46,914 bases of DNA, from NCBI GenBank assembly GCA_015485715.1, contig WFTA01000039.1, positions 1-46,914 of the forward strand, read 5' to 3'. The DNA is from Patescibacteria group bacterium. Its GTDB lineage: Bacteria; Patescibacteriota; Patescibacteriia; WFTA01; S139-112. Under the pieces are notes generated by a model. The model was not told the DNA's origin. It made no database searches and saw only the letters and a list, made by a program, of their open reading frames with translations. Every line of letters begins with the position of its first letter. Within the stretch, counting starts at the first letter, position 1. This document shows positions 4,526 through 45,198 of the stretch, in pieces. The translations under genes were made by a program, and so were the position numbers.

Positions 4526-4541
4526 AAAAATGTATTAATTA

Positions 4542-6056: not shown

Positions 6057-6126
6057 ACGACAAAAATTAATTATACATAAAAGTTATTTTAAGAATAACA
6101 TAAATATAGAAAAAATCAAAATTATA

Positions 6127-6229
6127 CAGCCCCACTTTTCAAGATTATCTGCAGATATGTTGCTTTAGATTAAGTTATACACCCCTTGACTTTATAGCAA
6201 GATTTGCCTCAAAAAATGGGGCTGGGTTG
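6127..6229 (-). repeat. TIR-element copy B (left TIR shortened)
   Basis: CAGCCCCACTTTTC...TCAAAAAATGGGGCTGGGTTG. Aligns with copies A, C and D. Overlaps the last 11 codons and the stop of comF. Confidence 0.85.
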
Positions 6230-19658: not shown

Positions 19659-19704
19659 AAATTATGTCTTAATTACACTTGCTTATTATATCACATAATA
19701 CCTG

Positions 19705-20502
19705 CTATCCAAAAATAAACCACTTTGGCTTTTTTTCTTCCTCTTCCAAAGACAATATTTCTTTGGCAAGCCTTTTATAGGCTTTAGCCCCCTTTGATCC
19801 GGGATCATACTCCAAAATGGTCTTGCCAAATGAGGGAGCTTCAGCAAGAGACACTGATCTTGGAATAACAGATTTAAAAATTCTTTCAGGAAAATAGCGA
19901 TACAGCTCATGAAAAACCTCCTGCGACAACTTGTATCTGTCATCATACATTGTCATCACAGCTCCTAAAATATTCAAGTCAGGATGCAGTCTGTTTTTTA
20001 CCAGATTAATAGTATGAAGAAGCTGGGACAATCCTTCCAGAGCATAATACTCAGTCTGCACAGGAATTAAAATACTGTCTGCGGCAGTCAGGGCATTTAT
20101 AGTAAGCATTCCCAGAGAGGGAGGACAGTCTATGATAATATAGTCATAGCTGTGCCTAAGCCCGTCTATCACCTGCCTCAGCCTGTACTCTCTCTTGGCA
20201 ACTCTGACCAGCTCTATATTAGCCCCTGCCAGATCAAGAGTAGCAGGCGCTATCCTGTGGCCGTCTATTCTGGTGCCAATTATAACATCCTTTAGGTGAT
20301 ATCTGCCGACAAGCGCTTCGTATACTCCCTTGTCTATATGGCGGGGATTAAAACCTACTCCTGATGTAGCATTGCCCTGAGGATCAATATCTACAAGCAA
20401 CACAAACTTGCCAAAATGGGCAAGATAAGCAGACAAGTTGACTGCAGTTGTGGTTTTAGCCACTCCTCCCTTCTGGTTTACAATTGCAATTGTTTTGGAC
20501 AT
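19705..20502 (-). CDS. parA: ParA/Soj partition ATPase
   Basis: 265 aa. Deviant Walker A (NQKGGVAKTTT), with typical ParA length and layout. The overlapping ORF 19686..19946 is judged spurious. Confidence 0.9.
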   Translation of the reverse strand: MSKTIAIVNQKGGVAKTTTAVNLSAYLAHFGKFVLLVDIDPQGNATSGVGFNPRHIDKGVYEALVGRYHLKDVIIGTRIDGHRIAPATLDLAGANIELVRVAKREYRLRQVIDGLRHSYDYIIIDCPPSLGMLTINALTAADSILIPVQTEYYALEGLSQLLHTINLVKNRLHPDLNILGAVMTMYDDRYKLSQEVFHELYRYFPERIFKSVIPRSVSLAEAPSFGKTILEYDPGSKGAKAYKRLAKEILSLEEEEKKPKWFIFG

Positions 20503-20986: not shown

Positions 20987-23900
20987 TTAGTTTTTATTTT
21001 GATTTCCATTTAAATTTAGTAAAAGACTCATTCTAATTAATCTATCAACACTTTCCCTATTTAGTACAGATAACCCAAATTGTCCTCTCTTTCCTTCCCA
21101 TTGAAGCCCTATTCCTGTGGCCTGACTGCCCTCATAATATTCTCTGTTAAAATATAAACGGGTACTACCTCCTACATTTAACCCTGCTTCAATCACCTGC
21201 TTGTGGGGAAGATTAGCGCCTCTAACATCAAATGGTCCTACGCCGGCTTCAATAATATACTGTAATGCAGGTTTTTTATTTATTTGCAATCCGTCTTTAT
21301 TTATCTCCACCTTTCCTCCTGTATTCAATATAAGTTGAGGTTCAATATATACTTTTCCACTTGATATCTTTGTCTTCAAAGATATAGCGGCTGATGGGAA
21401 GAAAAATGTATCTCTATCAGTTCTAACCATCACAGGAATCTGTACGACACTTACCCTTTCTCCTTCATTATTCGCAAGCGCTGCCTGTATAAAAGCACTA
21501 CCTACATCAATCCAGTTCAAACCACCTAAAAACCTTATCTCACCTTTTATTCCATCAGTAAATTCAGCTTTTACACTTAAACTTCCTGACAGCTGAAGTA
21601 GATGTTCTATTGGAAGTCTGATGTTTAAAGGAGAATTTTGGGAGTTTAAAACATCCGAACCAGACGGGCTAAGAGCTGCCATAATATCTCCAGTAGTATA
21701 GGAGATTTTCAAACTTTTCTCCATATATTCACTGCTACTGAATACTTTCATTTTAAATCCCCTTCTTTCCTCCATACCACCTCTTGAACTGAATTCCAAA
21801 TCTCTATAAGTCAGTTCTCCTCTTAAACCACTTTCTCCATACTGAGGATCTTCATATAAATCAGTTGCTTTCAATATAATATAGGTTAATAAATCAATCT
21901 GTTCTTGAGCTATTTCCTGTACTGAAGTATTTGCAACATTCTTAAGCATAAAATCAACAAGCTGATAAGGCTTAGTATCTTTTCCAAGACCTGATACTAT
22001 ATCTGCTAATTCTTTTATTTGCTTAGGATTAAGCTCTAAATACTCTTCTATCTCATTTCTTTCAAACATAATCTTTAAGGAGTTTAAAATGCCTGCCAGC
22101 ACCTTAACATTGTAAGGCACTTTGTTGCTTTCCATATCTACATCCATAATGCCTGCAAGATAAGGAAGTCCTATCTTAAGCTTAACATCTCTGTCTCCAA
22201 AATATTCCTTAATTTTTTCTGCAAAATCCTGCATATTCTTAGCCCCAAGAGCAATCTTTTTAAATACATCTAAATCAAAAGGTGTTCCATCAGGAATTTC
22301 AAAAGATATAATATCTTTCTTGTACTTTCCAAGGTTGGGGTCATATTCTGATATATATATTTTTGCTTCTTTTTCACCTATATAATACCCGGCATTAGCC
22401 ATTAGTGCCGCCCAACTCCACTCTATCTTTGAGGCAACATCAAAGCGTCCCAATAGCCTGTCAAATTCAGCTACTGTTTCCCAGCTGATATCACCGTTTT
22501 CAACCAAAACATTTAGTGCGGCTCTGCTTAATACATTATTTTCAAACTCTGCCCAAGATTTGGTAACCTCTGCTTTCCATCTTCCAAATATTGCCTGCAC
22601 CAGATCAGCAGATATTTTTGCCTTATCTCCTCTTTTTTCAGCCATCACAGCTTCCACAGCAAACCTTAACTTGCCTTTTAGAAAATCTATATATCCGCTC
22701 TTTAAACTTGCAAAAGTTCTCTCTTTATCTTTTAAGTACTCAACTTCGTTAAATTTAATCTCAAGTATATCAGCCAAATAAGCGTAAATTTCACTTGCAG
22801 ACAAATCCATACCGTTCTTCTCCAATTTAGATATAAATTCTTTTATTCCCAACTCAAAACTACCTGCATTCAGGACAAAACTCTCAAAAGCATACTCTTT
22901 TACATCGTTTATCTTGTCTATCTTTTGCTTAAATCCTTGAAGTTTTGTATTTACTATTCTTCCAATTCTGGCATACAGACTGTCTATATTCCTGTCAATA
23001 TTCCCTTCTGCACCTATCTCCTCCTTTACACCCTCAACAACTGCTTCTATAAACCCTTTAAAGGCTAAAATCTTTAGTTCCTCAAATCCCTGCACCATCT
23101 TTTCTCCTGTTTTTGAAAAGAAATACTCCTTCAAAGAAAAATTCAAAAGACTGTTTAAATCTGCTTCTATTTTTCTGTAAATATTTTCTCTTCCTTCAGG
23201 TGAGTCTATATCAACATAGCCAGATATGGCAATTCTTATTATTTCCCCTACAGTAAATCCAAGCCTGTCAAATACTTCCTCCCTGCTTCCGTCTTCTCCT
23301 ATTTTCTTATTATATCCTTCAACAAATATGCTTAGGAGTTCTTCAACATCAGGACTTGAGAGCCATTCTGATATCTTGCCTTTATATTTGCCATCTTTTG
23401 ATCTGCCAAGATCTGCAAGCAGTTCATCAAGATTAATATTACCTTCATCATCCATATAAAATCCCTTTTCCCTGACAGCTAAAAGAAAATTCTGAATCAT
23501 TGCATAAAGCTCAGCATTTTGTAAAAACGCTTCCTCTATGCTCTCTGACTTTTTAATACCCATTTTCTCAAGTTTTAACAAAAATCTATCTATAAGCTCT
23601 GCACTGAACTTATCAAAACTGATTTGTGTTCTTTCCTTAGATATTTCAACCACTAAACTATCCAACACAGATATAAATCTGCTTTTCTCAAGCTCAACCC
23701 CTGCTCCCTCTACAGCCAGTCTTATATTTCCCTTTCTGTCAACATTAAGATCAAATCCCTGCACTTTAAACCAATCTTCATTTTTCATCAGAACTTCAAG
23801 ATCTTCAACACTCAATGAAAACTGACCTTCCTTTGTATTCAATCTTGCTGAAATCCCCTTCGTCTTTCCTATAAATACATTACCCCAGTTAATCATATTC

Positions 23901-26900
23901 CACTCTGCAAGCTGGAATATGAATTCATTATCTCCATATTTAGCCTGCAGACCCTGCAGTGCCACTGCTCTGGCATTTCTATCTATATCAGACAACATAC
24001 CATCATCTATATATCTTAAATCTTTACTATCAAACTCTATTATTCCATTTAACAATGCTTCAGCATACAAATCCTTTGCATCTCTCATTGCCTCAACCAA
24101 TGTAAACATATCAATACCAAGCTCAAACTTTTCACTTGACAAATCTGCACTAAATCTAAATTTTGAAATACTAGCAACAAGCTTTTTTACATCGCCAGAA
24201 TAATCAAGATGCCCCTCTCCTGCTGCAACTTCTATTTCACTTCCTTTTTTCTTTGCTTCAAATTCCTTAAGCCATGCATCTGCTATCTCTTTATATCTCT
24301 CAAGTCTCATAAAAGCAAGATAGGCTGTAAAATCACCTGTTCTGCCATACTCTAACTTTAAACCTTGCAAATCAGCCTCTATACCTTTGTTAATTTTTCT
24401 TACTCTGTCAGCAACTTCTTCAGGAGTCATTTTAGGGGCATTTAAATCCAAATTTGCGAATTCTTTTGCATAAATTTGTTCAACACCCAAAACAAACTTC
24501 ATATCTCCCAAACCTGCCTCAAGACCCTTTATAATGCCATATATATATTTTCCATACCCTTCAGAAAAAAATGCCTCAGCACTCACCCTCAAAGCATATT
24601 GTATATCCTCTTTACTAATATCTCCTCCTTTCTGAAGCAGGATTTCCCCTATATTTGCATAAACAAGCTCTTTAAAATTCTTTACAAATACATTTCTAAG
24701 ATATGCAGTATATGCATCGTTTTCCATCTCAACACCCACCATTCCAGTAAACTCAAAATATTCACCTATAACCCTTTTTGCAGCATCTTGATATCTTTTC
24801 TCAGGATCAGATTCTCTGCTGTTTTTAAGATAATACTCAAACCTTTCAGCCGCACTGTCGCTTGACAAATAATCTCTCAAATCCCTAAATGCAAAACTCA
24901 TCTGCAGTCTGAGATAGTCTCTTCTTAATTGCTCAAATTCAAAATCTTTCAGAAAAGCTTCCCAGTTTTCTGTCACAGCCATTGCTTTTTCTAAATCTAT
25001 ATAGGTCTCACCATTTTTATATGTTACCGTCAATCCTTCTAAACTTGCAAACACCTGATCTTTAAAATCTTTCACTTTAGCTCGAGCTAATGCAATCTCT
25101 ATACTATTTTCACCAAATACACTCTCAACTTGTGATACAAATATATTGCCCCAATTATCTATCTCAACCCTAAATTCCTCTACTGATAATTTCTTCCTGT
25201 CTTCAGCAATTTTACCACTTATTCTTTTGACATAAGTTTCAAAATCATCAGCTATAATATTTGCTAACTCTGCAGAAAATTTTTCTCTGCTGATATATAC
25301 ACCTTTAAAATAGAATTCTGTTCCTCCTCCTCTTTCTGCATGAGGCAGGAAAGTACCCATTGAGTCAAAGCTGAATACCTTATCAGACTGGTTATAATAA
25401 ATATTGGTAAACTCTGTGGTAAATCCTGAAGGAAGCTGAACAAATATGCCATTAATATTTACACTCTCAACACCAGCAAAATTCTCTTTTATAAACCACT
25501 CCAGCCAATTTTTATCTACCTTTTTACCTTTATAGAAAATCTCATCAGATGTTCTGGGTAGTGTAAAATTATTCCAGTTAAAACCCTCTTTATCTTTTCC
25601 TTTTATATCTACTCCTTTTAGTGATACACTTAATGTATCCTTGCCTTCTGGGCCAGCATTAAACCAACTTAGATTAAAAGACTCTATAAAAAACCTATCA
25701 TTGTTTACCTTTGGTAAAGTAAATTCAATCTTACCTTTGACTGGATTAGAATCATGAGGTTCAACATTCTTATAAGTCTCTATTCCTCCGTAAGAAATAC
25801 TAAACTTATTACCATCAAAAAATACGTCATATACATCTGCCGAATATCCTTGACCAAACCATTTCAAATTCTTTGGAACATAAGTAACTAACACTCCTTG
25901 TATCATTTCGTACCATGGAGGCAGTTTTTTACCTTCAGCTATAGCTTGCCTATATCTGGTTGCAAATGTATACAGAGAGAGATCATTACTTTCCGCATCC
26001 AAATACTTTTCAAACATACCATCTACTCCTCTGACTCTAAACTTAGAAGGATATTTTAAAACCTCCATCTGTATCCCCCCAACATCGACAGCTCTTTCAA
26101 AATCAGTTTTTATTTTTTCATAAAATCCTTTCAGCCATGAAATAGCATTCTCTCTATATCCCTTTATAAATAGAGGTATATATTCGCCCGCCTCTGTTAT
26201 TTTCTCTTTAGGAATAGATGTTTTCTCATCTAAAATATTTAAATATTTATTCCATTTACTTGATATATCATTAGCATATTTATCTAATGACAAGGATAAA
26301 TCGTAAATATTTTTATTAACCCACTTATAATATGAATATACTAGTTGGGAATATTTTTTTCTTTTTTCAGTAATTATTTCACTGCCAGCTTGCATAATCT
26401 TTTCTTCCAGTTTTCCTATCATATCCGTCCATACATTAGATATTTCTTTTGGATCAAATTTTCCAGATTTTATACTCTCTTCAATTACTTTTCTGGTGTC
26501 TGCAATAGATTTATATATATCACTCCTTACATCATCTGGAAGTACAAAAAGTAATTCTGAAAATTTTTTTTCGAAATCATTTATCTCTTGTAAAAACTTA
26601 TTGGCAGCTTCAGCTCCTTTCTGATTAATCTCAGATGATATGTTGTCTAACACTTTATTCAATTCTCTTCTTACTGAATCAGGCAAACTCTCTACTATTT
26701 TTTTAATCTCATCAAAAGGAGACTTTAACTTCCTTATCTCATCAGGCCATTTGAGAGTAGCCAATATATCCCTAGCCTCTTCTCCTCTAAGATCAGGGTT
26801 TGCAAAAGGACCTATACCAGATCCTGTTTTAAATCCTGCAGAAAATACAGGACCTTCTCCGCCTTCTATCTTAAGCTTTGGGACAGGAAGAGTATCAAGC

Positions 26901-29900
26901 TTGGTTGTGGTTGTCTCTGGAACAGGAAAAGCAGGTGTAGTATTTATTAAAATACCTACCAGATATCTTACAAATATTTCAGCAGATACTCTATATGGAT
27001 TTACCCTGCTTTCTCCTTCTCTTTTTTGTAGTTCTTTTTCAAATTCTCTCCATACATCAAATTCTGATATCGACCTTACAGCTCTTTCAAAAACATCTCT
27101 GTCTATATTGAAATATCTGTCATAATACTCTTTATATAAAGCAGTTATCTTATCCTTAAACCAGTCAACTGCTTCAGAAACAAATAAAAGCCTCTGGGAC
27201 CTTGCCTCAGGACTGACACCACCACTTAAATCCCAGTAATAATCACCTCTCATTACATTTTGCAAAAGCAGTATATCTCTTATAAACTTGTACAGATTTG
27301 GGTGCTTTTTTTCCAAATCACCGAAAGTTTTTATTCCTTGTTCAGGTATACTGAATCTAACCTGAGGCAATACTTCATCCATTCTCTCTCCTCTCATCCA
27401 AGTGATAATCTGCGCTGTTTTAAGATAGGCGTCATTACTGTTTGATGATAAAACTTTATCTATATCTTCATCTGGTATATCTTTTAGTTTGGCATATTTT
27501 CTTACATCATCCACACTTATACCAGTAAATCTGTCAAATATTCTCAAATATTGTTCTACCTTTATTTTCTTACCTTTTACACCTTTATATATTATCCTTC
27601 CATCTTTTTCTGCAAACAATTCTGAAGTTATCTCATCATTTTTCAACTCTTTAAAAAACTTTTGCTTTTTTTCCTCTGTCCATCCCTGAGTATATTTCTC
27701 TAAATACTCATTTGTATAATATGCTACATATCTCATTCCCTTGTGAAGCATCCAGTATGTCCTTTCAAATATATTGTGAGGTGCAGGAGTTTCTGTAAGA
27801 GAACCCTCCAAAATATCCTTAATCTCTTCCCATTCACTATCAGGTGCAAGAGCAAAAAGCTGAGACTCAAGATGTTTTCTCAAATCTTCAGCAGGGATAT
27901 CTATACCAAGTCTTTGAAGATCATTCTGAGATATCTGTGAAAACAAAACATTCAGACGAGGTCCTGCATATTTGGACCAGTGATAAAAATCCTGCTGTCC
28001 TTTCTGTGGATGTGCCTCAGCTTGACTACTGCCATAAAAAGATGCAAGCACATACAAAAGAAGAGCAGGAACAAGGGCTTTTGCATCTTTTGCTCTATTG
28101 TCCGCATGTTTGACAGCACTCTCTATAGCACCTTTTAGAGATACCCCACCTCCACTGCTCAGCATATCTGCTAAAGCATCTATTAAATACTCTTTTTCTG
28201 CCTGAGGTACACTGCCTTCTGCAAGAGCCTTAATACCATCAATTGTCCCCTGTATACTCCCTATGCTTTGGTCCAAAACCTCTGCATAGATGTTAACCCT
28301 TGACACCATTTCATCTCTTATTGTTCTATGTAATTCACCAAGAACCAATAGTACACTGCTAAATAATTTTGTATCTTCAGCTGAAAATCTTTCAACTGCT
28401 GTAGAATACATATCATTTACTTGTTGATAGACACCATCAATCTGGTTTTTATACTCAATCAAAAATAAAACAGGATTTGTATCTCCACTGCTGATATTTT
28501 CTATCACCTGTCTGGCAATATTTCTGCTGTTTTTTATTTTTGGCATTATTTCCCTTACCTCATCTATAATTCCTTTTATCCCCCCTACTACGCCTCTCAT
28601 CTGTTCTGAAATGTTTTTTTCTTCAATTTTTGACAGAAATTCACCTGCTTTTGCTATTCTCTCCATATGCCTTCTCTCTTCAGCAGAAGATATACTGTCA
28701 GCTGCTTTTCTGGACAATTCCTGAACCTCTTCAAAAAGAGAGGAATCGCCTGTTTCCATACTTACAATGCCAGCACCCAAAGTTAACAGCCTTGAATAAA
28801 CATCTGCACTCATCTCTAACTCTTGTGTGGCATTTTCTAAAACTTTAGATATACTTTCTGCTCTACTTAATCCAGAATATATATCTAATGCACTAAAGGT
28901 ACCCTTTTCTACCAAATATTTAATATGCAGCAAAACCTCTCTATACTCTGAAAATCTGTTAAATATACTCTGATCTACAATATCTTCCAATAAACCTGTG
29001 GCTATATTTCCTTTAATCGCCTGTTGTGATAATTGGCGCTGCAAATCCCCTACTTTTCTGTCAGGACTCACTAAACACACCTTCTGATAAGTAGAATCTA
29101 TCACTTTCAAGACTTTTTTCTTTGTACCCTCATCTAATCTTGCTATCTGACCATACCCCTCAAAATTTATATTTTGAGATACTATATCTCTTATCTGAAG
29201 CAAATTTTTGTTTACCTCAAGCTCTATTCTCTTTATTTGATCAGCAAATATCTGCTCTTTTGGATATTTAAGTTGAGTGTAATAATATTCAATCATCAAG
29301 TTGTCTAACTCTGGTATATGGTTTTTAGGATCTTTTGCACAATCTATAGCTTTATCAACAATGCTGCGTAAAGATGCAATCTCTCTCTTAGAGGCAAATT
29401 TAGATATCTGATTTTTATATTTTTGCCAAAGCCCTTCTACTCCGTCCAACTCTAATCTAAACCTATCAAGTTTTTTTAATATTGTTTTTTCATCTCCAAG
29501 TTCTATATCAAAAAGCAGATTTCTGACTGTATCAATAATATCTCTCTTTAAGCCAAGAAAACCGACTTTATATCTGTGATATTCTATTTTATCTAATATC
29601 CCCTTCTCTCTTGCATAATGTATATTTTCTACCAGACGCCTTGCCTCACTTAGGCTTAAATCAGAAGACTTAACCACTGTCCTGACTGCTTCAGACGGCT
29701 TCATTTTTCCATCAATAATCCCATTTAAAACAACACTCCATACCTCTGGAATAATATTTAAACTTTCTCTGTATTTTGCTCTAAATATTTCACCCAACTC
29801 ACCCACTAAGCCATATCTGACACTTTCACTCAACTTTGAGACAACTTCACTATTATCAGGCAAAACCCTATTTCCCTCCATCAAAGCCTGCAAAGGAATA

Positions 29901-30550
29901 GAAAATCTTATATTTCTCCTGCCTTCGATTCCAAAACCATGTTCACTTGTTAATTCATCAATTGCTTCAACAACTTTTTCTACTGCCGCGCGGACAACAT
30001 CAGGTACTGTTGAAGATTTAAATCCACTATCTACTATATACATATGAACCCACTCAGCCAAACTAAAATGCCTGTTATCCTGTGTATTGTACTGCTCTTG
30101 TAACCTTGTTCTATCTGAGTCTGACAGTAAATTACGTGCTTTCTGAGTGGCTGATGTTAATTTTTCTGAAAGCGTAGACTTGGAAATTATCTTATAGTAA
30201 TTCCTGTATACCCCCTGCCAATTGTTCGCATTTCTTTTGGATAACCTAACTAACACATTTTGAGGTATTTCTGATAAAGTATTCAAAACCTCATCTATAG
30301 CATCAGGAATTTGATTATATATACCCGAAAGATCAGAAAATTCACTTTTAATATTTGCACGCAATTCTTCAAATGCACTTCTTACATCGTTTGGATCCAC
30401 ATATTCAAGCTTTCCACATACACCAGCCGGGAGCTCTTCCAAAAACCTTTCAGTATCAAAAATACCAGTAGCAACTTCTGGAGATCCGCCACCCGCTGTC
30501 TTAATCATATGCTGAAAATCTTCTTTTGATTGTATTCTGCTGTACCTCAT
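20987..30550 (-). CDS. Giant hypothetical protein (3187 aa); no family recognised
   Basis: Uninterrupted 9.56-kb ORF with an ATG start in DNA where stop codons are frequent. Mostly K/E-rich, helix-like sequence. More beta-like segments lie at about 25275-25890 and in the C-terminal ~255 aa (20990-21760). Confidence 0.85.
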   Translation of the reverse strand: MRYSRIQSKEDFQHMIKTAGGGSPEVATGIFDTERFLEELPAGVCGKLEYVDPNDVRSAFEELRANIKSEFSDLSGIYNQIPDAIDEVLNTLSEIPQNVLVRLSKRNANNWQGVYRNYYKIISKSTLSEKLTSATQKARNLLSDSDRTRLQEQYNTQDNRHFSLAEWVHMYIVDSGFKSSTVPDVVRAAVEKVVEAIDELTSEHGFGIEGRRNIRFSIPLQALMEGNRVLPDNSEVVSKLSESVRYGLVGELGEIFRAKYRESLNIIPEVWSVVLNGIIDGKMKPSEAVRTVVKSSDLSLSEARRLVENIHYAREKGILDKIEYHRYKVGFLGLKRDIIDTVRNLLFDIELGDEKTILKKLDRFRLELDGVEGLWQKYKNQISKFASKREIASLRSIVDKAIDCAKDPKNHIPELDNLMIEYYYTQLKYPKEQIFADQIKRIELEVNKNLLQIRDIVSQNINFEGYGQIARLDEGTKKKVLKVIDSTYQKVCLVSPDRKVGDLQRQLSQQAIKGNIATGLLEDIVDQSIFNRFSEYREVLLHIKYLVEKGTFSALDIYSGLSRAESISKVLENATQELEMSADVYSRLLTLGAGIVSMETGDSSLFEEVQELSRKAADSISSAEERRHMERIAKAGEFLSKIEEKNISEQMRGVVGGIKGIIDEVREIMPKIKNSRNIARQVIENISSGDTNPVLFLIEYKNQIDGVYQQVNDMYSTAVERFSAEDTKLFSSVLLVLGELHRTIRDEMVSRVNIYAEVLDQSIGSIQGTIDGIKALAEGSVPQAEKEYLIDALADMLSSGGGVSLKGAIESAVKHADNRAKDAKALVPALLLYVLASFYGSSQAEAHPQKGQQDFYHWSKYAGPRLNVLFSQISQNDLQRLGIDIPAEDLRKHLESQLFALAPDSEWEEIKDILEGSLTETPAPHNIFERTYWMLHKGMRYVAYYTNEYLEKYTQGWTEEKKQKFFKELKNDEITSELFAEKDGRIIYKGVKGKKIKVEQYLRIFDRFTGISVDDVRKYAKLKDIPDEDIDKVLSSNSNDAYLKTAQIITWMRGERMDEVLPQVRFSIPEQGIKTFGDLEKKHPNLYKFIRDILLLQNVMRGDYYWDLSGGVSPEARSQRLLFVSEAVDWFKDKITALYKEYYDRYFNIDRDVFERAVRSISEFDVWREFEKELQKREGESRVNPYRVSAEIFVRYLVGILINTTPAFPVPETTTTKLDTLPVPKLKIEGGEGPVFSAGFKTGSGIGPFANPDLRGEEARDILATLKWPDEIRKLKSPFDEIKKIVESLPDSVRRELNKVLDNISSEINQKGAEAANKFLQEINDFEKKFSELLFVLPDDVRSDIYKSIADTRKVIEESIKSGKFDPKEISNVWTDMIGKLEEKIMQAGSEIITEKRKKYSQLVYSYYKWVNKNIYDLSLSLDKYANDISSKWNKYLNILDEKTSIPKEKITEAGEYIPLFIKGYRENAISWLKGFYEKIKTDFERAVDVGGIQMEVLKYPSKFRVRGVDGMFEKYLDAESNDLSLYTFATRYRQAIAEGKKLPPWYEMIQGVLVTYVPKNLKWFGQGYSADVYDVFFDGNKFSISYGGIETYKNVEPHDSNPVKGKIEFTLPKVNNDRFFIESFNLSWFNAGPEGKDTLSVSLKGVDIKGKDKEGFNWNNFTLPRTSDEIFYKGKKVDKNWLEWFIKENFAGVESVNINGIFVQLPSGFTTEFTNIYYNQSDKVFSFDSMGTFLPHAERGGGTEFYFKGVYISREKFSAELANIIADDFETYVKRISGKIAEDRKKLSVEEFRVEIDNWGNIFVSQVESVFGENSIEIALARAKVKDFKDQVFASLEGLTVTYKNGETYIDLEKAMAVTENWEAFLKDFEFEQLRRDYLRLQMSFAFRDLRDYLSSDSAAERFEYYLKNSRESDPEKRYQDAAKRVIGEYFEFTGMVGVEMENDAYTAYLRNVFVKNFKELVYANIGEILLQKGGDISKEDIQYALRVSAEAFFSEGYGKYIYGIIKGLEAGLGDMKFVLGVEQIYAKEFANLDLNAPKMTPEEVADRVRKINKGIEADLQGLKLEYGRTGDFTAYLAFMRLERYKEIADAWLKEFEAKKKGSEIEVAAGEGHLDYSGDVKKLVASISKFRFSADLSSEKFELGIDMFTLVEAMRDAKDLYAEALLNGIIEFDSKDLRYIDDGMLSDIDRNARAVALQGLQAKYGDNEFIFQLAEWNMINWGNVFIGKTKGISARLNTKEGQFSLSVEDLEVLMKNEDWFKVQGFDLNVDRKGNIRLAVEGAGVELEKSRFISVLDSLVVEISKERTQISFDKFSAELIDRFLLKLEKMGIKKSESIEEAFLQNAELYAMIQNFLLAVREKGFYMDDEGNINLDELLADLGRSKDGKYKGKISEWLSSPDVEELLSIFVEGYNKKIGEDGSREEVFDRLGFTVGEIIRIAISGYVDIDSPEGRENIYRKIEADLNSLLNFSLKEYFFSKTGEKMVQGFEELKILAFKGFIEAVVEGVKEEIGAEGNIDRNIDSLYARIGRIVNTKLQGFKQKIDKINDVKEYAFESFVLNAGSFELGIKEFISKLEKNGMDLSASEIYAYLADILEIKFNEVEYLKDKERTFASLKSGYIDFLKGKLRFAVEAVMAEKRGDKAKISADLVQAIFGRWKAEVTKSWAEFENNVLSRAALNVLVENGDISWETVAEFDRLLGRFDVASKIEWSWAALMANAGYYIGEKEAKIYISEYDPNLGKYKKDIISFEIPDGTPFDLDVFKKIALGAKNMQDFAEKIKEYFGDRDVKLKIGLPYLAGIMDVDMESNKVPYNVKVLAGILNSLKIMFERNEIEEYLELNPKQIKELADIVSGLGKDTKPYQLVDFMLKNVANTSVQEIAQEQIDLLTYIILKATDLYEDPQYGESGLRGELTYRDLEFSSRGGMEERRGFKMKVFSSSEYMEKSLKISYTTGDIMAALSPSGSDVLNSQNSPLNIRLPIEHLLQLSGSLSVKAEFTDGIKGEIRFLGGLNWIDVGSAFIQAALANNEGERVSVVQIPVMVRTDRDTFFFPSAAISLKTKISSGKVYIEPQLILNTGGKVEINKDGLQINKKPALQYIIEAGVGPFDVRGANLPHKQVIEAGLNVGGSTRLYFNREYYEGSQATGIGLQWEGKRGQFGLSVLNRESVDRLIRMSLLLNLNGNQNKN

Positions 30551-38396: not shown

Positions 38397-39113
38397 ATGA
38401 AAACTGTTGTCATAATCCCCACCTATAATGAAGCAGAGAATATAAAAAACATAATCATGGAAACTTTTCAGGTAAACAATTCTCTGCATATTCTAATTGT
38501 TGACGACAACTCTCCTGACAAAACGTCAGAAAAAGTAAAACAACTTCAGTCAAGCTATACAAACAACCTCCACCTCATAACCAGAGATGGTAAATACGGA
38601 TTAGGGTCAGCATACATTACAGGCTTTAAATGGGCTCTAAAAAACAAATTTACACTAATATGTGAAATGGATGCGGATGGATCCCATAACCCTCAACACA
38701 TAAACGAATTTATAAAATATATAAATCAAGGATATGATGTGGTTATAGGATCAAGAAGGATTAAAGATGGACACATAATTGGATGGAATATATTTAGACA
38801 CATAGCGAGCTTTTCTGCCATGAAATTTGCCAAAATATTCCTAAATCTTAAAACAGAGGATATTACCAGTGGATTTAGGTGTTACCACAAAAAAATATTT
38901 GATAAAATAAATCTGGATAATATCAAAAGCAACGGCTATGCCTTTCAGGAGGAAATGCTTTACTTATGTGAAAAAAATAACTTTAAAATAAAAGAGATAG
39001 CCATCACCTTTGTAGACAGAAAAAAAGGCAAATCAAAATTGACCCTCAAGGATATATTAGAATTTTTTATAGTAATGATTAAACTTAAAATAAATGAATA
39101 TCGTAAAATATAA
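38397..39113 (+). CDS. GT2 polyprenyl-phosphate mannose synthase (Ppm1/DPM1-like)
   Basis: 238 aa. Motifs IIPTYNEAENI, IVDDNSPDKT, GLGSAYITGF and MDADGSHNP. Confidence 0.8.
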   Translation: MKTVVIIPTYNEAENIKNIIMETFQVNNSLHILIVDDNSPDKTSEKVKQLQSSYTNNLHLITRDGKYGLGSAYITGFKWALKNKFTLICEMDADGSHNPQHINEFIKYINQGYDVVIGSRRIKDGHIIGWNIFRHIASFSAMKFAKIFLNLKTEDITSGFRCYHKKIFDKINLDNIKSNGYAFQEEMLYLCEKNNFKIKEIAITFVDRKKGKSKLTLKDILEFFIVMIKLKINEYRKI

Positions 39114-40614
39114 AAATACAATATACCTGACACTTATTGCTGCAGTATCAGCATTATTTAAAATCGGGCTGGCCTTAAAATGGAAAGGGATGCTCTTTGA
39201 TGATATGGTATCAGTATATATAGCCAGGCAATCATTAAGTAATATATGGACATATCTTCAATGGGAAATGCATCCTCCCCTCCATTATCTGTATCTTCAC
39301 TTCTGGATAAATGTATTTGGCGACAGTGATGTAATTATGAGAATTTCAACAATATTTATAAGTATCATCAGTATATTCATAATATACCTTTTAACCAAAA
39401 AAATATCCCAAAACAGCCAAGCTGCTGTACTGGCAGCATTTTTTACTGCCTTTTCTTCATACCAAATCTATTTCTCAACATGGATAAGAATGTATGCTCT
39501 CTTATTTTTTCTTGCGTCATTGTCATTTCTTATATTTTTATATGCTGTTGAAAAAAATAAAAAATCCCTGTGGATACTTTTAACTATTGTCCAAACTTTA
39601 GCTGTCTATACCCATCTTACTGCAATTTTCATATTTATCATAGAGGCCATATACATTTTGTTTTTAAAATATAAGAAAACAATAAAGATCAACACAATAT
39701 ACAAATGGTTTTTATCAGGATTTGTTTCTTTCCTGCTCTTTCTTCCTTGGTTATACAACTTTATAAGTGTCAGGTTAAAAATCTTTCCCTCAAATTCATG
39801 GTATTTTTGGGCAGAAGGATATGATTCTTATTTTTTAACTATTCCTGTCAAGTTTCAATTTGCCGGCGTGGAAAACAACATACTTGATCTTTTGGGAACT
39901 ATAATCGTCATAATAGGGATTATATTTTTTATTTTTGATTTCAAAATAACCGATAAAAAAATAACATCTACAGTCTATGATTTAAAAAACATCATCCTTC
40001 CTTTGAGTATACTGTTTATACCATTATTAATATTTTTTATATTTAAAATAAACACCCTTAGATTTATGTTTATATCATCCATTGGTCTGTATATAATCAT
40101 TGGAATCGGACTGTTTAGAATTATACAAAAAACCAAAATTCCATCATTTTATATCTACTCATTTTTTGTATCTATCATAATTTTGGTCTTTGTATCCCTA
40201 TACTCAACTGACTATACCATAGGGTGGAAAAAAATAATCAATTTTATAAATCAAAACTCTACAAGGAACGAACTCATCCTGGCCAGTCATCCGTTTCAAC
40301 TGCTGCCCTTTTATACTCTATATACCGGAAAGTTGCCCTACATATCATATATACAGGAAGATATCAAAACCAATAATTTGGTAGTAGATATTCTCAAAAC
40401 AAATTTTTATCCTGTATTTACAGAAGATAATGTAAATAAAATAGATGACCTTACAAAAGATTATGACAGGATATTCCTAATCAGAACAGATAAATTCTTT
40501 ACATATTCAAACAGACTTGTATTTGAATATTTAATCTTAAAAGGATGGAAACCTAAAAAAAATCTGAAAATTAAGACATTCACAGAACCGGAGGTATGGA
40601 TACTTGAAAAATAA
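39094..40614 (+). CDS. GT-C fold membrane glycosyltransferase (PMT_2/ArnT-like, GT39/GT83 type)
   Basis: 506 aa with more than 10 hydrophobic helices. Acidic first-loop motif (MLFDDMVSVYIARQ). Overlaps the upstream GT2 gene by 20 nt. Confidence 0.7.
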   Translation: MNIVKYKNTIYLTLIAAVSALFKIGLALKWKGMLFDDMVSVYIARQSLSNIWTYLQWEMHPPLHYLYLHFWINVFGDSDVIMRISTIFISIISIFIIYLLTKKISQNSQAAVLAAFFTAFSSYQIYFSTWIRMYALLFFLASLSFLIFLYAVEKNKKSLWILLTIVQTLAVYTHLTAIFIFIIEAIYILFLKYKKTIKINTIYKWFLSGFVSFLLFLPWLYNFISVRLKIFPSNSWYFWAEGYDSYFLTIPVKFQFAGVENNILDLLGTIIVIIGIIFFIFDFKITDKKITSTVYDLKNIILPLSILFIPLLIFFIFKINTLRFMFISSIGLYIIIGIGLFRIIQKTKIPSFYIYSFFVSIIILVFVSLYSTDYTIGWKKIINFINQNSTRNELILASHPFQLLPFYTLYTGKLPYISYIQEDIKTNNLVVDILKTNFYPVFTEDNVNKIDDLTKDYDRIFLIRTDKFFTYSNRLVFEYLILKGWKPKKNLKIKTFTEPEVWILEK

Positions 40615-41061
40615 TTATCTGGAAGCAATAAGAGTATTCTGACGGATATTATAGGTGCTTTTGTCTTTTGCTTCCTCTATGGATTTGTTTATGATATTGA
40701 ATACCATTACCACTATAGCATAGGATAAAACAATGATAATAAGTCCAATAGACGCATTGGTAATAAGCTTGGTACCCTTTTGTGATCTATCACTATTACC
40801 CCCTGATGTCATCCACATAAACCCTCCATATAATACTATAGCAAAAAATAGTATTCCCAAAAATGTCAAAGCTGATTTTATCAATGTAAGAATAACCACT
40901 CTTAAATCAGATCTATATATTTTCAAATCTAATGGTGTAACACTGTCCACATTCTCTATAATAGTGTCTTTGGGTTGAGCATAGGCAGGATCATTCACTG
41001 TATATACTAAAAAGACCGCAAAGATGAGGATAAATAAAATTAAAATTGCAACTTTTTTCAT
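40615..41061 (-). CDS. T4SS-type (VirB2/TrbC-like, CPR 'T4SS_pilin') pilin paralog P1
   Basis: 148 aa. Signal peptide ending AYAQ and core YGGFMWMTSGGNSDRSQKGTKLITNASIGLIIIVLSYAIV. Confidence 0.72.
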   Translation of the reverse strand: MKKVAILILFILIFAVFLVYTVNDPAYAQPKDTIIENVDSVTPLDLKIYRSDLRVVILTLIKSALTFLGILFFAIVLYGGFMWMTSGGNSDRSQKGTKLITNASIGLIIIVLSYAIVVMVFNIINKSIEEAKDKSTYNIRQNTLIASR

Positions 41062-41071
41062 ATATCCAAAA

Positions 41072-41428
41072 TTACTTTATAAGCTCAGTAAACACAAACT
41101 TAGTGATTGCATAAGCAGACATTATAATAATAACACCTATAACTCCGCTTTTGATAAACCCTGTACCTTTTTTGGCCTTATCAGAGTCACCGCCTGATGT
41201 CATCCACAGAAAACCTCCATATATAGTCAAGATTAAAAAAATAACTCCTATAAATGCAATAACAGTGCTTAAAATATCTCCTATTAAAACTTTAATATCA
41301 GATCTTTTATTCAACCCTGCAGCTCCTGCTGCCTCATCAAGTCCGTATTGAGCAAAAGTGATATAAGGATAATACAATAAAAACAATATAATAAAATAAT
41401 TTGTTATTTTTCTAAACATACTAATCAT
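41072..41428 (-). CDS. T4SS-type pilin paralog P2
   Basis: 118 aa. Signal peptide ending TFAQ and core YGGFLWMTSGGDSDKAKKGTGFIKSGVIGVIIIMSAYAI. Confidence 0.75.
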   Translation of the reverse strand: MISMFRKITNYFIILFLLYYPYITFAQYGLDEAAGAAGLNKRSDIKVLIGDILSTVIAFIGVIFLILTIYGGFLWMTSGGDSDKAKKGTGFIKSGVIGVIIIMSAYAITKFVFTELIK

Positions 41429-41456
41429 ATTATCAATCTGATAATATTATATCATA

Positions 41457-42419
41457 TTAGTATATACAAGTACAATTCACGCATTGACTCTTGAAACCAC
41501 CACCACAATCGCTATCTTGTTCACATTCTTCTCCACCTTCTATTACACCATCTCCACATATAGCTCTTCTTTCACAACACTCCAATCCTGATCCAGAGCA
41601 TGTACCAAAAGCTACCTCTGCACACTCACCAACAGGAACACATCCTGCGGTTCCAGTACAAGTCTTCTCACAGCATACATTTCCTCCAAAACATGACATA
41701 TCTGATCTTAAGCTGTATTCAGGAGGGCACTTGGACATACAGTCAAATATACATGTTTTTGGAGATGGAGAAGGTAAAGATTTTGTAGGGACTGGCTTAC
41801 TACAGCATACAAATGCAGGATCACCGCAAGCACCAACTTTTGAAACCACTTCACACCCTTCTTTAGGCACGCACCCATAATTAGTTAAACATCTATCAGC
41901 AGCTGCACAACATACATATGATGAAGACGGACAAGAGCCGCCTTCCACAGGAACACTGCAGCCAAACCTTGGTACACAGCCTAATACTGCCTCTGAAGGA
42001 CAGGCACCTATAACACTTGATTCCTCTTCATCTCCTAATAATATATTTGAAAATACAAAATTAACCATGGCATATGAAGAAAATACAATGACAATTCCAA
42101 TCACTCCGTTTTTTATGAAGCCTGCTCCTTTTTTTGCCTTTTCAGGATCCCCGGCTGACGTCATCCATAAAAACCCTCCAAATATGGTCAGGACTAAAAA
42201 AAGAACCCCTATCCAGACTATAATCTCACCTATTATTTCACCGGTTGTGACTGTCAATGGTTTATTCTTTTTAATTGCTGCTTCAGTGGCTGCTATGTCT
42301 AAATTTTGTGTATAATTAACAGCCTGAGCATTAGCCTTAGGTATATTGAAAACAAAAAAATAACTCATCAAAACAAGAAGTAAAAAAACACTGCAAATTT
42401 TATAAGATATCCCTCTCAT
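41457..42419 (-). CDS. T4SS-type pilin paralog P3 with a ~190-aa Cys-rich C-terminal extension
   Basis: 320 aa. Signal peptide ending ANAQ and core FGGFLWMTSAGDPEKAKKGAGFIKNGVIGIVIVFSSYAM. This is followed by four 6-Cys modules and a CGDG...EEC...DC tail. Confidence 0.75.
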   Translation of the reverse strand: MRGISYKICSVFLLLVLMSYFFVFNIPKANAQAVNYTQNLDIAATEAAIKKNKPLTVTTGEIIGEIIVWIGVLFLVLTIFGGFLWMTSAGDPEKAKKGAGFIKNGVIGIVIVFSSYAMVNFVFSNILLGDEEESSVIGACPSEAVLGCVPRFGCSVPVEGGSCPSSSYVCCAAADRCLTNYGCVPKEGCEVVSKVGACGDPAFVCCSKPVPTKSLPSPSPKTCIFDCMSKCPPEYSLRSDMSCFGGNVCCEKTCTGTAGCVPVGECAEVAFGTCSGSGLECCERRAICGDGVIEGGEECEQDSDCGGGFKSQCVNCTCIY

Positions 42420-42442
42420 CTGATATGTTTAATTCTAAAAAT

Positions 42443-42470
42443 ATTATATCAAAATATAAAATAAAAACAA
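42443..42470 (-). promoter_or_regulatory. Candidate promoter for P3-P2-P1 (TTGTTT-N16-TGaTATAAT, extended -10)
   Basis: Read on the minus strand between the P4 terminator and the P3 ATG at 42419. Confidence 0.45.
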
Positions 42471-42471
42471 T

Positions 42472-42499
42472 AAAAGCCCCGGCTTGCGCCGGAGCTTTT
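42472..42499 (-). terminator. Intrinsic terminator downstream of P4
   Basis: Minus strand: AAAAGCTCCGGC-gcaa-GCCGGGGCTTTT followed by ATTGTTTTTATTTT. A GC-rich stem in AT-rich DNA. Confidence 0.8.
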
Positions 42500-42520
42500 G
42501 TAATAACATCCAAAAACTTA

Positions 42521-42901
42521 TTAAGTAGCTGCCTGTTCCAAAATATTGAATACAAAAGTTACAATAGCAAATGCTAAGAATATGATAATAAGACCTATTA
42601 CACCGTTGATTATAAACTTTCTACCTTTTCCAGCCTGCTCATCATTGCCCCCCGCTGTCATCCAGAGGAAACCTCCGAAAAGAACCAAAATCAAGAATAT
42701 AATACCAAGAACACCCAGCAAGACATTAATCAAATTAATCAACACCTCTCTTAAATCACCTCTTGGTAAATCAGAGGCACCCAAATAAGAGGTTCCAAAA
42801 TCAGGAGTTCCTCCTCCCTGTGCCAACACTGCTGCTGGCAATACAAAAACAAATAAACTCAAAACAAATGCTGTTATATGTTTTACGAATCTATTTTTCA
42901 T
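42521..42901 (-). CDS. T4SS-type pilin paralog P4
   Basis: 126 aa. Signal peptide ending VLAQ and core FGGFLWMTAGGNDEQAGKGRKFIINGVIGLIIIFLAFAI. Confidence 0.75.
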   Translation of the reverse strand: MKNRFVKHITAFVLSLFVFVLPAAVLAQGGGTPDFGTSYLGASDLPRGDLREVLINLINVLLGVLGIIFLILVLFGGFLWMTAGGNDEQAGKGRKFIINGVIGLIIIFLAFAIVTFVFNILEQAAT

Positions 42902-42984
42902 ATATTTATGTATAAATTACACAAAAATTTTTGTCCCCGACCTTTGAAGTATTAATTGTTTACTGTGGATAACTAACTAATTCT

Positions 42985-42993
42985 ATTATAACA
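42985..42993 (-). promoter_or_regulatory. Candidate extended -10 element (TGTTATAAT) upstream of P4
   Basis: Perfect TGnTATAAT on the minus strand, ~85 nt upstream of the P4 ATG. No convincing -35 element. Confidence 0.35.
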
Positions 42994-43026
42994 AAAAAAA
43001 GAAAAAAATAAAATAAACTATAGTAT

Positions 43027-43497
43027 CTACAAATCATTCTTCTGTTTTTGATCCTGTAAAAATCTGTTATAATCTTGAACATTTTTTTGCAACAACACAT
43101 TACCTATAACCCTAATGATTGTAAATGCACTTAAAATCAATATAATACCAATAACTGTATTTACAAGTATATTCTTTCCCTTTTCAACTCTTTGAGATGA
43201 GCCTGCTGAAGTTAAAAATACAAACCCGCCGTAAATAAAATAAGCAAATGCAGCCACACTCATAACAGCTAATATCCACTGTAAAATATTTATTGCAGTC
43301 TGAATAAAACTGTTTACAGTACAGTCAGCAGGATTTATGCCTGCACAATCTATTGATACAAGTCCTTCAAATTCTTTAGGCTTCTCTGATGCAGGAGGTG
43401 TATTGCCCTGCGAATATACAACATCTATATTGCTGTTATATGCAAAAATCAAGAGAAAAACAGGAATAATAAATATTAAGACAACTTTTCTGTACAT
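43027..43497 (-). CDS. T4SS-type pilin paralog P5 (most divergent)
   Basis: 156 aa. Signal peptide ending VYSQ and core YGGFVFLTSAGSSQRVEKGKNILVNTVIGIILILSAFTI. The ectodomain carries a Cys pair (DCAGINPADC). Confidence 0.65.
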   Translation of the reverse strand: MYRKVVLIFIIPVFLLIFAYNSNIDVVYSQGNTPPASEKPKEFEGLVSIDCAGINPADCTVNSFIQTAINILQWILAVMSVAAFAYFIYGGFVFLTSAGSSQRVEKGKNILVNTVIGIILILSAFTIIRVIGNVLLQKNVQDYNRFLQDQKQKNDL

Positions 43498-43498
43498 A

Positions 43499-44902
43499 TC
43501 AAAATGTTTGATTTACCAATCTTTCAGCCTCTATAATGGCCTTCTGGGGTGTTAATTCACCATTAGTAACCTTTAGTATCATATCCTTAAATATTTTCTC
43601 AACAGCAGATATATTCCTGCCGCGATACCAACTCATTGCCGTAAGAGCCTGATTTGCAAATACAGACATCTCCGGATCAAGGATTTGCTTAGCTATTATA
43701 CTCCTTAAAGCAGCCGGTTTACCGGATCTTTCTAGATATTTTTTTACGACCTCCTGACGAGTTGTTGCAAAATTTACAAAATCCCATGCATAGTCTGAAT
43801 TTGCACTGGTTTTGGCAACAGCCAGTCCCCAAAAACTCCCCCAATTCACACTTGTCCCTGTAGCATCAGTTCCATTGGCATTTATATGCGGAACAGGTGC
43901 TATACCTAAATCTATCTTAGGTGCAAGAGACCTGATAATAGGTTTTTGATATGAATACCCTATCATCATAGCCAATCTCCCGCTTGCAAACATCTCAACT
44001 GCCTGTGGAAAATTCTCAGACCATGTGTATATTGCTTTTGCTGGATTGGCAAAATCTGTATAAAATCGCAGTGCTTCCTGACCGGGTCTGAAATCTCTAT
44101 TTGCAGAATATGCGCTTCTTCTTGCAAAAGTAGCAGTATAACCGTCCGGAGTTGTAAACTGAGTTCCGTTTTGAGCCATCAAAAGAGACAAAATATCAAA
44201 ACTTCTGTTTATATTATATGCTCCACCCAATGCAATAGCAGACTGAAGAATGTTCCCGTCTTCGTCATACTTGGTTAATTTCCTAGATATATTTGCAACC
44301 TCAACCCAGCTTTTCGGAGGTACGACAATGCCCGCTTGATCAAGAAGCAGTCTGTTATAATACAAAACAAGAGTGTCTACAGATACGGGAAGGGCCCATA
44401 CCTTGTTATCACTTACTGCATTTTCATAAACAATCTGAACAAATCTGTCTTTTACTTCTAATGGTCTTAAGAATTTAACATTCTCAAATCCATATTTAAC
44501 TTTCTTCTTCAATCCGCCTGTCACTTCTCCTACAGGAATTTCCTTAACACCTTCAGGTGCAGGCGCAAGCTTCGTCTTATAACCACCCACCCAAGTATTA
44601 TGAACCATAATTATGTCGGGACCCCTGCCTTCTGCCCACGCATCCAGAAGTTCTCTTTCGTAATTCTCAAATTTAATTTTCCTGTAATTTATATCTACAT
44701 TTAATCTACTCTTTCTGTATGATTGTATAACAGGCTCCCAATCATAATTAGTATCAAAAACACCCCAAAACTCCAAAGTAACTTTGTTTTTCATCATCCT
44801 CTTTGCCCTTACAGAATCAGATACGCACCCCGCTCCCAATAAAAAAACCAGCAAAAAACTGGCTATAGTGAATAATATCCTGTTTTTTCTACCTTTCGTC
44901 AT
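43499..44902 (-). CDS. Extracellular solute-binding lipoprotein (ABC-transporter SBP, family 1 sugar type)
   Basis: The track start at 44953 is a TTG inside a TTGAAAATT repeat. The ATG at 44902 gives MTKGRKNRILFTIASFLLVFLLGAGC, a lipoprotein signal. The body is typical of sugar SBPs (TLEFWGVF..., PDIIMVHNTW). Confidence 0.75.
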   Translation of the reverse strand: MTKGRKNRILFTIASFLLVFLLGAGCVSDSVRAKRMMKNKVTLEFWGVFDTNYDWEPVIQSYRKSRLNVDINYRKIKFENYERELLDAWAEGRGPDIIMVHNTWVGGYKTKLAPAPEGVKEIPVGEVTGGLKKKVKYGFENVKFLRPLEVKDRFVQIVYENAVSDNKVWALPVSVDTLVLYYNRLLLDQAGIVVPPKSWVEVANISRKLTKYDEDGNILQSAIALGGAYNINRSFDILSLLMAQNGTQFTTPDGYTATFARRSAYSANRDFRPGQEALRFYTDFANPAKAIYTWSENFPQAVEMFASGRLAMMIGYSYQKPIIRSLAPKIDLGIAPVPHINANGTDATGTSVNWGSFWGLAVAKTSANSDYAWDFVNFATTRQEVVKKYLERSGKPAALRSIIAKQILDPEMSVFANQALTAMSWYRGRNISAVEKIFKDMILKVTNGELTPQKAIIEAERLVNQTF

Positions 44903-45198
44903 ACATCTAAATAATACCACAAAACAAAGAATAAAACAATAAACAATTTTCAATCCCGGTCATAACGACGGGATAAATAATCAATTTTCAATTTACCAAT
45001 TTTTCAATCAATTATTTAATTATCCAATGAATTAAATCCTAAACTCTGCATCAAAATCAGTGTATATTTATAGTTTAAACCATTAAGTCATTAAATAATT
45101 GAAAATTTGAAAATCATTGTTGGTTATTGTTCAGGATTTCGGACTTTTAAATCTAAGATGATAAAAATACAGGCAAATCAGACTGCTCACCTCCCTCA

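Follow-up and report, generated by a model that had tools for sequence, protein, structure and literature searches.

Tandem arrays of divergent pilin genes of type IV secretion systems (T4SS) have been described from Patescibacteria. A survey of 3,035 Patescibacteria genomes with the profiles PF18895 and PF04956 recovered 441 arrays of 2–11 pilin genes, with a mean identity of 25% and a maximum of 54%; antigenic variation or adaptation of host range was speculated (Quinonero-Coronel et al. 2025; PMC12102498). A 'VirB2 array' is defined there as 2–11 divergent pilin genes, in tandem or one non-pilin gene apart, in a genome with VirB4. The PF18895 series SEML1_0014–0019 lies inside the T4SS cluster of Southlakia epibionticum and is essential to its growth as an epibiont (Wang et al. 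2023; PMC10633639), as repeated in a 2025 review (PMC12857230). In two Paceibacteria metagenome-assembled genomes (MAGs), T4SS pilins rank in the top five signal-peptide genes by expression (Kuroda et al. 2024; PMC10936435). The locus described here consists of the genes P1–P5 on contig WFTA01000039.1 of a Patescibacteria group bacterium (assembly GCA_015485715.1; 0.98 Mb, 87 contigs, 88.6% complete). The whole stretch analysed, 46,914 nt, is contig C39 of that assembly and is called the window. By the published definition the locus is a VirB2 array: five tandem genes, 24–48% identical, with VirB4 in the genome. A tandem pilin array as such is already published, and as an array the locus adds nothing new. 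Worth carrying forward are its wiring, led by the gene of a solute-binding protein (SBP), and its ordered subunit classes; the SBP-led module is recurrent and not special to this genome. The Patescibacteria T4SS is nearly universal and is essential in Southlakia; published roles of the arrays are speculative. Three handles on its function are offered. One is a conserved orphan SBP of the sugar type, encoded together with pilins and in some lineages contiguous with PrgI, TrsD and VirB4. Another is that ancient pilin classes keep a fixed order, which speaks for a heteromeric machine and against antigenic variation. The third is the P4 type, a candidate for the major subunit, whose module is also found at the head of giant Ig-like surface proteins.

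P1, 40615–41061, minus strand: 148 aa; last of the pilin-like subunits and the most divergent; its C-terminal tail is short and hydrophilic.
P2, 41072–41428, minus strand: 118 aa; short distal pilin-like subunit.
P3, 41457–42419, minus strand: 320 aa; pilin module (~42036–42419) fused to a Cys-rich tail.
P4, 42521–42901, minus strand: 126 aa; most conserved paralogue, candidate major subunit.
P5, 43027–43497, minus strand: 156 aa; position-1 pilin-like subunit with a Cys-pair loop.
SBP_bac_1 gene, 43499–44953, minus strand: 484 aa; heads the pilin array.

The five minus-strand open reading frames (ORFs) lie where the original prediction, made from the DNA letters, had put them (40615–43497). 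Intergenic gaps are 1 nt (SBP–P5), 125 nt (P5–P4), 101 nt (P4–P3), 28 nt (P3–P2) and 10 nt (P2–P1); the 1-, 28- and 10-nt gaps agree with those given earlier. P5 is translationally coupled to the SBP gene, the SBP stop lying 1 nt from the P5 start. Shared with the Southlakia and survey arrays are PF18895, divergent tandem paralogues and a monoderm, MPF-FATA-like T4SS with VirB4, TrsD and PrgI. In Southlakia the array is inside the T4SS cluster, with no SBP listed, whereas here and in the class to which the genome belongs it lies apart from virB4 and is headed by an orphan SBP_bac_1 gene.

That the five genes belong to the T4SS pilin family and to a T4SS is highly likely. The fuller reading, in which they are VirB2/TrbC-superfamily pilin-like subunits of a chromosomal monoderm-type T4SS with the filament and the roles set out below, is judged probable; its filament and role assignments are much less certain than family and affiliation. 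Placement in the family had been predicted, and the profile hidden Markov model (HMM) search set beforehand as its refuting check upheld it. P2 (34.7 bits), P3 (39.4), P4 (37.2) and P5 (39.6) all score above the curated gathering cut-off of PF18895 (T4SS_pilin; 26.6 bits). P1, at 24.3 bits, is just under that cut-off, aligns across the whole module and keeps the invariant residues. P4 also matches TrbC/VirB2 (PF04956) below threshold (24.3 bits, E = 3.6e-5), and close homologues of P4 bear both PF18895 and PF04956. NF045849, the pilin-like family of Mycoplasma integrative and conjugative elements (ICE), matches all five proteins at E = 2.8e-7 to 5.8e-4, below its own cut-off. The family numbers 29,973 cluster representatives at E ≤ 0.001 in a global search. 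The predicted loop GGF(L/M/V)(W/F)(M/L)T(S/A)(G/A)G...KG is present in every one of the five; eleven columns of their alignment are invariant and centre on GGF..T..G...KG and IG. Hydrophobicity segments give each protein a signal-peptide stretch and two more hydrophobic helices. Between the signal peptide and the hairpin each has an N-terminal ectodomain that is variable, whereas the short basic loop of the hairpin is conserved. Pairwise identity of the pilin modules is 24–48%, the P2 module being 48% identical to that of P3. AlphaFold2 models P4 as a hairpin, with helices at 50–81 and 87–125 in the full-length protein (predicted local distance difference test, pLDDT, 83.4) and at 20–54 and 60–98 in the mature module (pLDDT 79.7). 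The case for family membership is made by profile HMMs and gene context, with which the fold agrees without being diagnostic. The P3 tail (41457–42035, minus strand) comprises 192 aa with 30 Cys, in about four GCVP...C...CC modules and a CGDG...EEC end; it has no Pfam match and by topology should be extracellular.

Signal peptides end in AYAQ, TFAQ, ANAQ, VLAQ and VYSQ, all as first read. They are of Sec type I, ending in A/S-Q; none of the five proteins has the class III motif (G/[FM]TLxE) in its first 40 residues. On this ground P1–P5 are not pilins of type IV pili, and no prepilin peptidase is to be expected; the earlier remark that no prepilin-peptidase gene was in view was therefore beside the point. 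Major and minor pilins of type IV pili and type II secretion offer an analogy in their ordered, non-interchangeable subunits, one abundant and several specialised. They are an unrelated family, with class III signal peptides and a prepilin peptidase, and their motif is absent here.

In Gram-negative conjugative systems a VirB4-dependent machine extracts the pilin from the membrane. The VirB2, TrbC and TraA pilins of those systems (T-pilus, F-pilus) have in common with P1–P5 a small size, a Sec signal peptide, two helices and a short basic loop, and P4 has its sub-threshold TrbC match. The locus differs from them in a monoderm host, no outer-membrane core complex, no VirB5 and many paralogues in place of one major pilin; its structural match is no better than a generic hairpin. 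The archaeal Ced system (CedA1; 8dfu) and the Mycoplasma ICE (Mbov_0395 family, NF045849) resemble it in VirB2-like hairpins, VirB4-type ATPases and the lack of an outer membrane. They move DNA and have one or two pilin genes, versus five here. All Ced and NF045849 matches are sub-cut-off or non-significant, 8dfu being the only pilin among the Foldseek matches. No SBP partner is known to us for either system.

No family match to VirB4, VirD4 or VirB6 was found by profile search within the window, in agreement with the original prediction, which had treated a genome with no T4SS-like ATPase or channel as grounds to abandon the pilin reading. Such ATPases are present on other contigs, one VirB4-like and three VirD4-like, along with a TrsD-like and a PrgI/VirB3-like gene. 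On contig C58 (6.3 kb) are the genes of a PrgI/VirB3-like protein (PF12666), a TrsD-like protein and the VirB4-like ATPase; the ATPase scores 356 bits on NF045971 (CD1110 family; cut-off 325 bits) and additionally matches CedB. The core operon of this contig (locus L015, minus strand) reads open-ended ORF, PrgI, TrsD-like, VirB4, membrane proteins of 213 and 223 aa, and a 117-aa signal-peptide protein. The first transmembrane (TM) helix of the last is cut by the contig end; its gene may be an eighth of the pilin-like kind, this one linked to VirB4. The VirD4-like ATPases are a tandem pair on contig C57 (472 and 489 aa) and a third on C37 (853 aa). Ahead of the C57 pair come a multi-TM protein of 480 aa and a DUF11 surface protein of 1377 aa (C57:16788–25515; locus L016).

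Two further PF18895 proteins occur outside the window, one of 128 aa on contig C48 and one of 2214 aa on C68; searching the genome with an HMM made from the seven paralogues gave no additional members. The 2214-aa protein (C68:6121–12765; locus L019:1122–7766, minus strand) carries at its N-terminus a pilin module of P4 type (PF18895, 29.9 bits), and Big_5 Ig-like domains come after it. Both relatives and the global search commonly show giant ORFs, 1,400–4,800 aa long, in which one pilin module stands at the N-terminus. Among relatives of the same class PF18895 is present in 41/41 genomes and VirB4 in 39/41, and same-class VirB4 operons carry their own PF18895-domain gene 2–6 kb away. A phylum-wide sample has VirB4 in 147 of 151 genomes and the SBP in 124. 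Phyletic co-occurrence of VirB4 and the module was dropped as evidence, being uninformative because VirB4 is present in 147/151.

Gene order in other lineages ties the array to the secretion machinery. In at least 17 genomes of 9 families the SBP gene shares a strand with VirB4 and is 2.4–13 kb upstream; six were verified. SBP, two pilins, PrgI, TrsD and VirB4 are contiguous in G107, and SBP, PrgI, TrsD and VirB4 in G063. G045 has SBP, nine pilins, four ORFs (one weakly TrbL-like), PrgI, TrsD and VirB4. G098 has SBP, four pilins, two large ORFs, PrgI, TrsD and VirB4. In G061 and G105 the order is a GalU-like gene, SBP and two pilins, two opposite-strand genes, then a large ORF, PrgI, TrsD and VirB4. 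The SBP–pilin module is part of the T4SS gene cluster in some lineages, since it is contiguous there with PrgI, TrsD and VirB4. A PEMT/ICMT-like membrane methyltransferase stands between the pilin array and the VirB6-like, PrgI, TrsD and VirB4 genes of G045 (L083:8915–9571).

The SBP matches PF01547 (SBP_bac_1; E = 1.8e-25) and PF13416 (E = 1.2e-18). A conserved Cys following the signal h-region makes it a probable lipoprotein. Its nearest solved relatives are sugar SBPs binding maltose, trehalose or acarbose; the nearest named relative of the gene is in a MAG of the Parcubacteria group. The SBP is single-copy in 39/41 same-class genomes; in at least about 30 of them, as judged from the positions of SBP and PF18895 genes, it shares contig and strand with the array and stands immediately upstream of it. 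All 15 related loci fetched have the SBP followed directly by 2–9 pilin genes. Loci of other families have SBP and then same-strand pilins in 25 cases out of 40, the exceptions being mainly the weakest SBP matches. Gaps between SBP and pilin are mostly −7 to +60 nt across the class-level and other-family loci. Fusion of the two genes was looked for, and 0 of 64 SBP ORFs in the loci examined contain a pilin module. In the closest relative (same family, 51% identity) the SBP orthologue (G001:C37:1478–2872; locus L027) has one in-frame TAA by six-frame search; the ORF call there gives a 460-aa ORF and then two pilin genes before the contig end. A GalU-like nucleotidyltransferase gene (PF00483) is directly upstream of the SBP in 9/9 related loci examined for it; in the window it is absent from that place, where a 254-aa ORF of unknown kind and a TPR protein are found instead. 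The same GalU-like gene precedes the SBP in loci L020, L031–L035, L037–L040 and most of L041–L086, a placement conserved phylum-wide.

A canonical ATP-binding cassette (ABC) importer is closed to this SBP in most of the class, because 8/10 near-complete relatives (98–100%) are without any BPD_transp_1 (PF00528) permease; the SBP is kept in 10/10. This genome has two single-permease loci only, each with its own ATPase and judged NitT/TauT-like from the sequence pattern. A cognate MalF/MalG-type permease pair appears to be lacking, an absence that at 88.6% completeness is weak evidence when taken from this genome alone. Solute-binding-fold proteins linked to T4SSs that recognise a molecule of the partner cell are known: the enterococcal pheromone receptors PrgZ and TraC, which pass peptide to the Opp permease, and Agrobacterium ChvE, which serves an ABC importer and signals through VirA. 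The case here differs in that most relatives are without a matching ABC permease and the SBP gene is translationally coupled to a pilin gene. The SBP-led wiring of the array looks unpublished: SBP terms and Pfam accessions are absent from the main text and supplements of the 2025 array survey as far as these were covered (PMC12102498), and no SBP_bac_1 protein is listed for the Southlakia T4SS cluster in the covered part of its description (PMC10633639).

Paralogue classes were read from a tree of 96 pilin modules from 16 arrays, with support from the Shimodaira–Hasegawa-like approximate likelihood ratio test (SH-aLRT). The position-1 clade (SH-aLRT 96) contains P5 and takes one member from each of 15 loci; its mark is a Cys-pair loop, C-x5-8-C-x2-[DN]-F, just before TM1 (C51...C59 in P5). 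The window array has no member of the position-2 group (support 94), and the C48 protein shows a weak grouping (support 81) with genes of positions 1 and 2 outside the position-1 clade. The P4-type clade (SH-aLRT 98) contains P4, has short branches and is represented in 15 of the 16 loci; also in it is the N-terminal module of the C68 protein of 2214 aa, which pairs with P4 (SH-aLRT 97). P4 orthologues in other genomes are 60–72% identical, versus 24–48% between paralogues. The distal set is poorly resolved, with many genome-specific duplications, and P1 falls inside it. P3 and P2 appear to be lineage-specific duplicates, because they form a sister pair (SH-aLRT 98). The pattern indicates ancient, ordered and non-redundant subunit classes, with turnover at the distal end only.

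All five genes are complete ORFs with start codons and signal peptides, and no silent cassettes are present. A repeat search of the array DNA found no long identical tracts and no inverted repeats bracketing a promoter; the sole DNA shared among paralogues is a 58-nt loop-coding stretch of 64–78% identity. Subunit specialisation is thus favoured over interchangeable antigenic variants, as the ordered clades are ancient and silent cassettes, long identical tracts and an invertible promoter are lacking. The original prediction had left the choice between antigenic and functional diversification. The functional half is sustained by the position-1 and P4-type clades, which are ancient and have one member per genome; the antigenic half found no silent cassettes, long identical tracts or invertible promoter to stand on. 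Several divergent VirB2 genes in a row are also found in Anaplasma phagocytophilum and Bartonella; the locus differs from those in its ancient classes, in an order conserved across families and in the absence of DNA marks of recombinational variation. Pilin modules also occur as poly-pilin chains (P0121–P0149), topologically consistent, of one signal peptide and 2–16 tandem ectodomain–hairpin modules; P0122 (427 aa) has one signal peptide and four pilin modules.

The signals between the genes are as follows.

Extended −10-like motif TGTTATAAT, 42985–42993, minus strand: sequence motif 84 nt upstream of P4.
Intrinsic terminator, 42472–42499, minus strand: after P4; 12-bp stem with 7 G-C pairs, 4-nt loop and T-run.
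Extended −10 motif TGATATAAT, 42443–42451, minus strand: sequence motif before P3.
Extended −10 motif TGATATAAT, 41446–41454, minus strand: sequence motif in the P3–P2 gap.

The terminator and the extended −10 motif before P3 had both been predicted and both are real. The earlier operon reading, SBP–P5 with P4 following and then P3–P2–P1 behind a promoter, is mostly right; it overlooked TGTTATAAT before P4 and the second TGATATAAT in the P3–P2 gap. Three extended −10 motifs within 254 nt of intergenic coding strand compare with a chance expectation of ~0.03; the whole window has 12 on both strands. A search for DNA repeats in the array connects 41437–41469 with 42434–42466 (repeat family D3), so that the promoter region upstream of P2 and P3 was duplicated along with the gene. 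From the three promoter-like motifs and the terminator, the likely transcription units are therefore SBP–P5; P4 alone, closed by the terminator; then P3 and P2–P1. P4 looks monocistronic, between its own promoter-like motif and a strong terminator.

The following mechanism is proposed. The proteins would be inserted by Sec and, once the signal peptide is cleaved, would sit in the membrane as hairpins with both ends outside and the basic loop inside. VirB4 machinery would extract the hairpins and assemble them into a surface filament or conduit. P4 may be the main building block, given its conservation and a promoter and terminator of its own. P5, of the Cys-loop type and co-translated with the SBP, would be an adaptor or initiator joining the binding protein to the structure. 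P3, P2 and P1 would be variable accessory subunits, P3 showing its Cys-rich domain outside. The tethered sugar-type SBP may recognise or capture a host-derived glycan for the apparatus, and would feed no ABC importer. Tentatively, and with a good deal of doubt, this can be carried further: the transporter-less SBP would be a working T4SS part, beside or on a heteromeric structure (P5 adaptor, P4 shaft, variable distal subunits), and by its capture or recognition of a host-derived glycan the T4SS would be an organelle of host sensing or uptake, not an exporter of DNA or effectors. No T4SS with a binding-protein component of the SBP kind is known to us.

Several points weigh against a VirB4-built filament of P1–P5. 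Foldseek searches of full-length and mature P4 against PDB return generic helical hairpins only, all at E ≥ 0.96. The archaeal Ced pilus 8dfu stands at rank 10 with E = 8.5 and a target-normalised TM score of 0.59, and a two-helix hairpin is too simple a fold to discriminate. A profile HMM search against PDB sequences gives no match. TrbL/VirB6 (PF04610) has no match in the 88.6%-complete genome; the ORF upstream of PrgI runs off contig C58 and is likely VirB6-like. In this genome and its class the array is apart from virB4, for example at 484 kb versus 301–306 kb in the closed genome G012. The roles of P4, P5 and SBP are drawn from conservation and gene order. Fused chains of 2–16 modules are awkward for a helical polymer of free monomers. 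No pilus has been shown for any Patescibacterium, and Gram-positive-type T4SSs are normally pilus-free (PMC12857230).

Three other explanations share parts of this evidence. Antigenic or host-range variation has been proposed for the VirB2 paralogues of Anaplasma and Bartonella, and the five genes might likewise be interchangeable major pilins, alternative versions of one filament subunit expressed differentially to escape recognition or to suit different host strains. The survey itself suggests as much (PMC12102498), paralogue identity is low (24–48%) with divergence mostly in the ectodomains, distal duplications are lineage-specific (P3 and P2; pairs in L020, L035, L037 and L036), and separate promoter-like motifs would permit differential expression. 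This explanation is nevertheless unlikely: the position-1 and P4-type clades are ancient, take one member or a few from each genome and keep their order through many families, as befits non-redundant parts; all five genes are complete with signal peptides, hence no silent cassettes; and shared DNA is limited to 58 nt at 64–78% identity, with no inverted repeats around a promoter. Alternatively the module could be an autonomous SBP-dependent surface or uptake apparatus, independent of VirB4, in which a tethered receptor works with a pore or platform of oligomeric hairpins and the likeness to VirB2 is one of ancestry only. It would account for the missing permease partner of the SBP in 8/10 near-complete relatives, for the conservation of SBP and pilins as a tight unit and for its distance from virB4 in the class of the window; poly-pilin chains fit a fixed membrane oligomer better than a growing filament, and the ATP-synthase c subunit, a ring-forming hairpin, is among the best small Foldseek matches of P4. 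Against it, the module is contiguous with PrgI, TrsD and VirB4 on one strand in several other families, VirB4 is nearly universal wherever the module occurs, VirB4 operons of the same class have a PF18895-domain gene of their own 2–6 kb off, and the Southlakia PF18895 series is inside an essential T4SS cluster without an SBP; such an apparatus is judged improbable.

The hairpin might also be mainly a generic, non-polymerising two-helix anchor inserted by Sec, which displays ectodomains: small N-terminal pieces, Cys-rich tails and giant Ig-like stalks. A pilin module does head the 2214-aa Big_5 Ig-like protein of this genome and proteins of 1,400–4,800 aa in many others, and P3 has its 192-aa Cys-rich tail. 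A mere anchor, however, has no need of a loop, GGFxWMTxxG...KG, near-invariant over ~30,000 cluster representatives, nor of an ordered set of paralogues linked to VirB3 and VirB4. The smallest members, P2 (118 aa) and P4 (126 aa), display almost nothing, and the module of the giant protein is specifically P4-type (SH-aLRT 97), which fits co-assembly with P4. An anchor function is thus quite improbable.

The surroundings of the array are of other kinds. On the plus strand at 38397–40614, genes of a GT2 (Ppm1-like) and a GT-C/PMT_2 glycosyltransferase converge on the P1 end of the array. Pilin glycosylation by this adjoining pair was considered and rejected as a conserved link, a GT2 neighbour being present in 1/15 related loci. 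A 3187-aa ORF at 20987–30550, minus strand, has no Pfam match at E ≤ 0.001. The scan covered the remaining ORFs of the window except five of small or middle size (in 3643–6926 and 18726–20502); those scanned either have domains of housekeeping or unrelated kinds or match nothing in Pfam. Domains identified among the scanned ORFs are GH125, ClpB-like ATPase, topoisomerase I, DprA, sigma-70, primase, RelA/SpoT, DNA polymerase III alpha, FtsW, and GT2 and GT-C glycosyltransferase.

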